The notes below the pieces were generated by a model that made no database searches, was not told the DNA's origin, and saw only the letters and a list, made by a program, of their open reading frames with translations. From a virus (lineage: Duplodnaviria; Heunggongvirae; Uroviricota; Caudoviricetes), in the IMG/VR virus record IMGVR_UViG_2541047798_000001: a DNA stretch of 9,836 nucleotides; one strand, given 5' to 3'. The position numbers were made by a program, and so were the translations under genes. This document shows positions 8,923 to 9,125 of this stretch, one piece after another; positions within the stretch are counted from its first letter, which is position 1, and every line of letters starts with the position of its first letter.

Positions 8923-9125
8923 ACGGGTCCTTTCCGGCATATGGACCCGTTACGGGGCGGCGACCTCGCGCGTTTTCACTATTTATGAAAATTTTCCGGG
9001 ATCCATGTCCGGTTTCTCTGCAAGTTAACCATATGAAAAATATAAAAACATGCTTTCTATGAACCGGACATGCGCAAAAAACAGACACTAAAACCGGACA
9101 TCGTACCCGTTAACCGGAAGTGTGC
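8923..9125 (+). other. Lambda-type cos site 1 (cosQ-cosN-cosB, rightward): cosN 12-nt cohesive-end sequence GGGCGGCGACCT at ~8955-8966
   Basis: ACGGGTCCTTTCCGG...CCCGTTACG|GGGCGGCGACCT|CGCGCGTTTTCACTATTTATGAAAATTTTCCGG is near-identical to the lambda right-end/left-end junction as recalled. cosB carries a 10-mer AACCGGACAT once inverted (9005-9014), twice direct (9062-9071, 9092-9101) and a variant (9112-9121), with an AT-rich block between, mirroring the lambda R3-I1-R2-R1 layout. Confidence 0.8.

Follow-up and report, generated by a model that had tools for sequence, protein, structure and literature searches.

The 9,836-nt stretch of DNA analysed here in its entirety (hereafter the window, whose coordinates are used throughout; IMG/VR record IMGVR_UViG_2541047798_000001) is the right-hand part of a phage-inducible chromosomal island (PICI) of the EcCICFT073 family. 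An intergenic stretch at 8893–9554, between open reading frames (ORFs) of 137 and 93 amino acids, holds two convergent lambda-type cos sites, cos1 and cos2. The short repeats at cos1 are the ordinary cosB of another lambdoid specificity group, and the protein cognate to them is that group's own terminase small subunit (TerS). We propose, with a probability of roughly 0.78, that the two cos sites directly mimic those of two helper lineages, and that the island would need no satellite-encoded factor to be recognised by its helpers. Within the cos sites, bp 1 denotes the first nucleotide of the cohesive end, and genome counts are out of 5426 complete E. coli genomes.

The 12-nt cohesive end of cos1, GGGCGGCGACCT, is at 8955–8966 (plus strand; cosN) and is identical to lambda bp 1–12. 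About 24–30 bp upstream, as in lambda-type cos sites generally, is the cosQ heptamer GGGTCCT (8925–8931, plus strand), which was read from the sequence and is conserved in the phage relatives; we take both the heptamer and its spacing to be the same as in lambda (lambda bp 48473–48479). Downstream of cosN, the sequence AACCGGACAT is present in three exact copies, all of those in the window and all inside 97 nt, at 9005–9014 (minus strand), 9062–9071 (plus) and 9092–9101 (plus). Shuffled sequence has on average 0.01 exact matches, and three copies were reached in none of 200 shuffles. A fourth copy, AACCGGAAGT at 9112–9121 (plus), matches at 8 of 10 positions. Measured from cosN, the four copies lie at bp 51–60, 108–117, 138–147 and 158–167, and the CGTTTCC cores of lambda at bp 53–59 (R3), 114–120 (R2, inverted) and 155–161 (R1); by these core coordinates the positions of R3 and R2, and their inverted relation, agree with lambda within about 2 bp.

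There are several notable features of this arrangement. First, the R3-equivalent CATGTCCGGTTTCTCT (9004–9019, plus strand, bp 50–65; core ATGTCCGGTT at 9005–9014) is invariant in phage PhiR12_1, an O157 prophage and the PICI copies. Second, the R2-equivalent, CATGTCCGGTTCATAG on the minus strand (9057–9072, bp 103–118), is inverted with respect to R3 as it is in lambda, so that the pair falls in the intervals of about bp 50–65 and 103–120 where a lambda-type cos has its inverted repeats. Third, the block between them (9020–9056, no strand) occupies the position of lambda I1, is conserved with the phage relatives and is AT-rich, with an A+T content of 74% (window, 51%; lambda I1, 77%); its best match to the integration host factor consensus WATCAANNNNTTR has 2 mismatches, against 1–2 in lambda's own I1, which leaves it a candidate binding site at most. 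Fourth, an additional R copy (9087–9102, minus strand; core at bp 138–147) stands at the point where homology to the phage cos stops. Finally, the degenerate copy at 9112–9121 lies beyond the phage-derived stretch, and since the phage relatives lack it and EcCICFT073 has it in a further decayed form (AACCGAAAGT), it is probably not a functional site.

An initial annotation of this DNA, made from the sequence alone, had described cosB of cos1 as retaining the lambda R3-I1-R2-R1 layout with a different repeat sequence, in the form of one inverted copy followed by three direct ones. The inverted copy at the R3 position is confirmed, as are R2 with its inversion and the AT-rich block; two of the three direct copies are exact, the third being the unconserved 8-of-10 match, and at R1 the layout is matched only loosely because a lambda-type R1 is missing from the window. 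As to the repeat itself, the R3-equivalent and lambda R3 (CGTTTCCGTTCTTCTT) agree at 9 of 16 positions on direct comparison, and it is related, in diverged form, to the lambda R element; it also resembles the phage-21-type CGTGTCGGTACTTCTC of the CFT073 helper prophage.

Comparison with phage genomes reveals where this cosB, which we designate type A, is at home. Window positions 8985–9101 are 98% identical to five PhiR12 phages (the literature searched yielded no paper describing them) and match prophages in 1185 genomes. Over bp 1–147, cos1 shares 97.3% identity with PhiR12_1 and 91.2% with an O157:H7 prophage, and with cos2 of EcCICFT073 the figure is 98.6%. In the phage the type-A cosB is ordered as R3 CATGTCCGGTTTCTCT (bp 50–65), the AT-rich block, an inverted R2 (bp 103–118), an extra inverted copy (bp 133–148) and R1 CATGACCGGTTTTGTT (bp 145–160), and terS starts at bp 196, about 50 bp downstream of the homology to the island. 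It encodes a Nu1-family protein (PF07471; phrog_57, phrog_1790) with a divergent, or even unrelated, N-terminal DNA-binding region. Because a near-identical cosB precedes terS in these phages, what looked like a different repeat sequence turns out to be the cosB that a lambdoid group normally has. A TerS of altered specificity, one of the two alternatives that the annotation had offered, is thus supported by the divergent N-terminal domain encoded in PhiR12_1 and the O157:H7 prophages, but not as something new.

The second site, cos2, is a phage copy of another type. Its cohesive end, GGGCGGCGACCT (9479–9490), and its cosQ (9514–9520) are on the minus strand, as is a cosB (type B, 9295–9440) in which repeats of GGTTGTTGT follow the lambda layout: 9432–9440 (bp 51–59) corresponds to R3, 9373–9381 (bp 110–118, inverted) to R2, and 9295–9303 (bp 188–196) to R1 in both position and orientation. 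Three copies of GGTTGTTGT were likewise reached in 0 of 200 shuffles. Bp 1–200 of cos2 share 94–95% identity with the cos that immediately precedes terS in two prophages (L010 and L011), so that both sites of the island show the near identity with a helper cos, the TerS-binding region included, that characterises cos mimics. Lambdoid prophages of type B were found in O145 RM9872 and GN02050, and type-B terS in 247 genomes; the type-B cosB has no match among the sequenced phages in INPHARED and was found only in prophages. The C-terminal halves of TerS-A and TerS-B are nearly identical and their N-terminal DNA-binding domains differ, as would be expected of a protein that reads cosB with its N-terminus and contacts a shared large subunit (TerL) with its C-terminus. 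This split mirrors the specificity pairs of lambda and phage 21.

The adaptor gene of the family has meanwhile been lost. In EcCICFT073, rppA (c1503) lies between the cos sites, and its product heterodimerises with the helper TerS and redirects it to cosB of the island's cos1 (PMC6739421). In the window the family arrangement of rpp directly downstream of a cos1 with an Rpp-type cosB is absent, cosB of cos1 being type A, and the gene survives as a remnant of its last 22 codons (9186–9251, plus strand), which tblastn with RppA and the Rpp of a relative (L002) matched to residues 123–144 at 73–82% identity. The L002 query is an ORF between cos sites that itself matches the sequence of the RppC crystal structure (6hlk) at 2e-31. 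Searches of the window and the whole island by tblastn with RppA, L002 Rpp, lambda Nu1, TerS-21, TerS-A and TerS-B found no other rpp or terS, and gave a weak match (E 0.2) on an AlpA-type helix-turn-helix gene. The small ORFs between the cos sites, including one of 114 amino acids with a GTG start (9122–9466), were judged non-coding; they are AT-rich, overlap the type-B cosB as well as the rpp remnant, and have no annotation in the RefSeq relatives.

The junctions suggest how the type-A cosB came to its present position. The island copy leaves the phage sequence after bp 147 and continues into a terminator hairpin (9134–9151, minus strand), the same sequence that stands directly after rppA in CFT073 and hence the former rpp terminator of an EcCICFT073-type cos2 block; this is followed by a fragment from the 3′ end of rpp, in inverted orientation. 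The 3′ end of rpp, about 15–20 nt of it, is present twice in inverted orientation (9168–9182 and 9242–9256, within 9166–9256), and this duplication marks the junction of the relocated type-A arm with the rpp remnant. Window 8924–9189 matches the cos2 side of locus L007, inverted. Because the former rpp terminator and the inverted rpp fragment have come along with the type-A cosB, the cos1 block is shown to be an entire cos2 arm of EcCICFT073 type, relocated to the position of cos1. A different event is seen at locus L003 (11022–11450), where the type-A phage cosB including R1, together with the first 9 codons of phage terS, runs into the middle of rpp through 7 nt of microhomology (GCCAGGC); this junction is a direct footprint of illegitimate recombination by which cosB was captured from a phage. 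A 69-aa ORF at that locus, annotated as hypothetical, was considered as a truncated Nu1 and rejected, as it consists of the C-terminal half of rpp plus the 9 phage terS codons. In EcCICFT073 itself, cos2 (L009, CFT073, 3100–3309) shares its AACCGGACAT cosB with PhiR12_1 and the O157 prophages.

We therefore propose that rpp and the Rpp-type cosB have been replaced, with cos1 now carrying the native type-A cosB (AACCGGACAT / CATGTCCGGTT) of PhiR12_1 and O157:H7-type prophages and cos2 the type-B cosB (GGTTGTTGT). Upon helper induction the island would excise and replicate to concatemers, and unmodified helper TerS of the Nu1 family, whose N-terminal DNA-binding domain is specific to the lineage, would use this domain to bind the R elements and would place TerL on the shared cosN, which TerL would then nick. 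A type-A helper would start at cos1 and package rightwards, and a type-B helper would start at cos2 and package leftwards. No new retargeting factor is needed in this scheme, because each cosB is a phage copy that has a cognate terS.

Candidate helpers are common and reside alongside the island. Type-A terS, annotated as terminase small subunit, is present in 1166 genomes. Four hosts of the cassette (SCU-172, S1-CAM-02-A, NCTC9112 and STEC2018-607) carry a prophage with type-A terS at 99.7–100% identity, and NCTC9112 has type-B terS as well; in SCU-172 the cos of the prophage and cos1 of the island are 97.2% identical over bp 40–147. We regard this co-residence as supportive. A second type-A terS locus is also present in SCU-172.

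Several observations nonetheless weigh against the proposal of direct mimicry. First, neither the phage-type R1 (in R3 orientation, CATGACCGGTTTTGTT, bp 145–160) nor a terS at bp 196 is present at cos1 of the window, and the missing R1-equivalent could lower the efficiency of the island's type-A cosB. Second, terL of the type-A prophage in SCU-172 (L013, 3559–5476) is annotated as frameshifted, and the co-occurrence with helpers comprises four hosts of related cassettes, counted without phylogenetic correction. Third, plasmids carrying cos2 of EcCICFT073, which has the same cosB, are poorly transduced by lambda and phi80 (PMC6739421); this fits a non-cognate helper and is no proof of a cognate one. 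Fourth, what the analysis shows are the sequence identities, the pairing of each cosB type with a terS of its own in phages, the loss of rpp, the independence of the flanking ORFs from cosB type and the co-residence of type-A prophages; binding of the repeats by TerS-A and TerS-B, and transfer of the island by this route, are inferred. Finally, loss of rpp takes away the only known interference function, so that the element could be a decaying derivative.

This last possibility deserves to be set out as an alternative in its own right. The island would then be an EcCICFT073-type element that lost rpp by rearrangement between the inverted cos repeats and is poorly mobilised, the repeats at cos1 being relics of the ancestral cos2. 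The rpp remnant and its inverted 3′-end duplication are consistent with such a history, as is the type-A block with the former rpp terminator, and the full-length cassette is rare (14 genomes). The distribution of the Rpp-less cassette, however, suggests otherwise. Copies 95–99.8% identical occupy at least four chromosomal sites (cspD–clpS, roxA–phoQ, one near yejO and, in L014, one beside kinase-family genes), and the backbones that carry them differ in their replication genes (DUF927 in some and a RepA helicase in others); this variety of sites and replication modules argues that the cassette has spread since the loss of rpp and is still spreading. Moreover, cosQ, cosN and all exact R copies are intact in both arms, and cognate helper prophages co-reside, all of which makes simple decay unlikely.

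A second alternative is the one put forward in the initial annotation, namely that an ORF flanking the cos pair (8479–8892 or 9555–9836) encodes a satellite factor that retargets helper TerS to a satellite-specific cosB in the manner of Rpp. Rpp does act in this way at cos1 of other family members (PMC6739421), both L002 and CFT073 have rpp between their cos sites, and neither flanking ORF has a Pfam assignment. The cosB concerned, however, is not satellite-specific, being a near copy of a phage cos that has its own terS. Neither ORF resembles RppA, RppB or RppC: there is no PDB match for either (structures 6HLK and 6HN7), and BLASTP against RppA gave E 4.4 for one and no alignment for the other. 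Pfam and PHROG scans likewise gave no link to Rpp. Both ORFs lie outside the cos pair and not downstream of the cosB that they would have to read. Among EcCICFT073 genes expressed individually, only c1503 (rppA) blocked lambda (PMC6739421).

The identity and distribution of the two proteins lead to the same conclusion. The 137-aa ORF (8479–8892, plus strand; phrog_1999), the last gene of the capsid module, matches the head maturation protease family phrog_53 at positions 494–567 and is 37% identical over 83 aa (E 2e-10) to the C-terminus of an S49 prohead protease of a CFT073 prophage. In lambda C/Nu3 the counterpart of the matched region is the nested scaffold Nu3. The product thus resembles the scaffold-like C-terminal portion of a lambda-type prohead protease and not a packaging-specificity factor, and belongs with the capsid genes. 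The 93-aa ORF (9555–9836, plus strand; phrog_1561) encodes a conserved hypothetical protein with 1027 close homologues, modelled by AlphaFold2 as three helices, with no beta hairpin, at a confidence (pLDDT 59.5) too low for a comparison with the N-terminal winged helix-turn-helix fold of Rpp. Neither protein varies with the type of cosB. The 137-aa protein is 98.5% identical to its counterpart beside the Rpp-type cos1 of L002, and the same 93-aa protein and 137-aa proteins of 87–98% identity are found beside cassettes of the Rpp, TerS and phage types, whichever way these are oriented; among 20 surveyed loci an identical 93-aa protein was present beside window-type, inverted and TerS-containing cassettes. 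This conservation regardless of cassette type largely refutes a role as retargeting factor, and we rejected both ORFs as Rpp-like candidates and consider such a role very improbable.

A third alternative, that the repeats serve as origin iterons or operators of an island regulator and are next to cosN by coincidence, draws on the occurrence of short repeats around AT-rich blocks at origins too and on published PICI origins located 3′ of the replication gene (PMC6092414), but can be dismissed almost entirely, since in phages the same sequence lies between cosN and terS at the lambda R3/R2 coordinates, the repeats are a diverged form of the lambda/phage 21 R consensus, and the primase gene and presumed origin of the island are 3.7 kb away.

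The inter-cos cassette (8924–9521) is bounded by 72-nt inverted repeats (8924–8995 and 9450–9521) and is found in both orientations across genomes. Among the 20 surveyed loci, 6 are of the window type, with type A at cos1 and type B at cos2. In 3 the core is inverted, with B at cos1 and A at cos2, two of these being separate copies in STEC2018-607. Another 6 are EcCICFT073-type, with an Rpp-type cos1, rppA and a type-A cos2. The other 5 (L018, L019, L024, L025 and L031; ~2058–2936 in each) have a full 180-aa Nu1-family terS between the cos sites in place of rpp, with B-like repeats (GGTGGTGG / ACACCAACC / GGTTGGTGT) in cosB of cos1 and phage-21-like repeats (CATGTCGG) in cosB of cos2. Relative to the flanking island genes the core is inverted in L006 (599 nt, 95%), L012, L021, L022 and L030. 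Homologous recombination between the 72-nt cos repeats could bring about the inversion and is the plainer explanation; it is also conceivable that terminase cuts both inverted cos sites, giving identical 12-nt overhangs that can be religated either way.

These forms raise the broader possibility that an exchangeable and invertible two-cos cassette determines helper range in a combinatorial manner. Its arms would be either copies of lambdoid cosBs (A, B or 21-like) or adaptor sites (Rpp or island TerS), the window would be an adaptor-free dual mimic, and cos2 of EcCICFT073 would be a type-A mimic for helpers other than lambda and phi80. We regard the odds on this wider scheme as even. A cosB of phage type may also explain why cos2 of EcCICFT073 is dispensable, and is not stimulated by RppA, in transfer by lambda and phi80.

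The remaining features of the window are those of the island family. Pfam hits identify an integrase, a DUF927 primase-helicase, a single-stranded DNA-binding protein (SSB), a lambda E-like major capsid protein (7063–8118) and a D-like decoration protein (8131–8466), the last two forming part of the capsid module. The traits of the family are all present, namely an integrase, an AlpA-type regulator, a primase/replication module, a length of ~11 kb, E-like and D-like capsid genes and two convergent cos sites. In RefSeq, E. coli SCU-172 has a 99.8% identical copy, in an island of ~11 kb, flanked by cspD and clpS. Beside phoQ in CFT073 the same order is found (capsid, decoration, 137-aa ORF, cos, cos, 93-aa ORF), and this element is EcCICFT073. 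The segment 6857–8892 forms a compact lambda-like head module with a 68-aa phrog_3255 protein, the E-like capsid, the D-like decoration and the Nu3/scaffold-like ORF, and an intrinsic terminator, a hairpin with a T-run (8896–8917, plus strand), follows the 137-aa gene.

Much of this background has been described before, including the island family with its pair of cos sites, Rpp, the lambda/phage 21-style specificity of cosB and TerS, and satellites that carry a helper cos. EcCICFT073 (Fillol-Salom 2018, 2019; Murialdo and Feiss 2022) is the prototype Gram-negative cos PICI, with the capsid homologues c1499/c1500 as well as cos1 and cos2; deletion of its capsid and decoration genes left interference with lambda unrelieved, and its packaged DNA is phage-sized (PMC6092414). 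The original papers compared the island with lambda, phi80 and CFT073 phage 4 and identified no phage cosB in it. For cos1, a single R3-like Rpp site at bp 48–65 has been proposed by Murialdo and Feiss, who remarked on the absence of repeated R sequences there (PMC9026076).

Against this background the window is both similar to and distinct from several known systems. With EcCICFT073 it shares family, gene order and lambda-identical cosQ and cosN, as well as the near-identical sequence noted above for that island's cos2; it differs in lacking rpp and the Rpp-type cosB (bp 48–65 of EcCICFT073 cos1 being AGGTGACACCACCACCAC), in having the type-A cosB at the cos1 position and in having a second phage-type cosB at cos2. 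Lambda shares the cohesive end, the cosQ and the arrangement of R elements inverted around an AT-rich block, and with lambda and phage 21 together there is the further likeness that CATGTCCGGTTTCTCT is a diverged relative of CGTTTCCGTTCTTCTT and CGTGTCGGTACTTCTC and that the phage relatives have a Nu1-family terS with a specificity-determining N-terminus; unlike lambda, the window has a different R sequence, no terS downstream and no R1-equivalent at cos1, although cos2 keeps all three R positions. PhiR12_1 (PV340549) and the cos-terS regions of O157:H7/O104:H4-type prophages are source-like for the type-A cosB, with 97–98% identity from cosQ to bp 147, beyond which the phage goes on with R1 and terS and the island with the former rpp terminator and rpp remnants. 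Direct mimicry of a helper cos including its TerS-binding part, without a satellite TerS or adaptor, as proposed here, is the strategy of SaPIbov5 with its cos phages and of P4 with P2, and also of HE-PICI 11capE, which shares 258 bp with its helper 50icd (PMC10111431). The window differs from these cos-carrying satellites in that it would mimic two helper lineages at once through convergent cos sites, and in that the prototype of its family uses an adaptor, Rpp. In the literature searched, subscription-only papers apart, we found no later work on cos2 of EcCICFT073 or on Rpp-less variants, and no account of the near-exact match between that cos2 and a common prophage cosB, of Rpp-less members with two different phage cosBs, or of the inter-cos cassette in both orientations.

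Published work on Gram-negative cos PICIs holds that Rpp redirects helper TerS to a cosB peculiar to the island, and leaves the second cos unexplained. The present comparisons suggest a simpler route in parallel with this, in which islands may also carry straight copies of helper cosBs and some members have dropped Rpp and would rely on two such copies. For the idea of a retargeting factor the value of the analysis is mainly negative, in that the flanking ORFs need not be searched for one, and in this respect the outcome is an ordinary one; to specialists in satellite phages it is of moderate interest. If the sites are functional, the type of cosB would predict which prophage lineages mobilise which islands, with type-A terS present in roughly one complete E. 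coli genome in five, Shiga toxin-producing and enteroaggregative E. coli (STEC/EAEC) O104:H4 and O157:H7 among them. Functional sites would also account for the dispensability of EcCICFT073 cos2 with lambda and phi80, and would make cosB type a readable marker of helper range for genome surveys and for PICI-based delivery vehicles.

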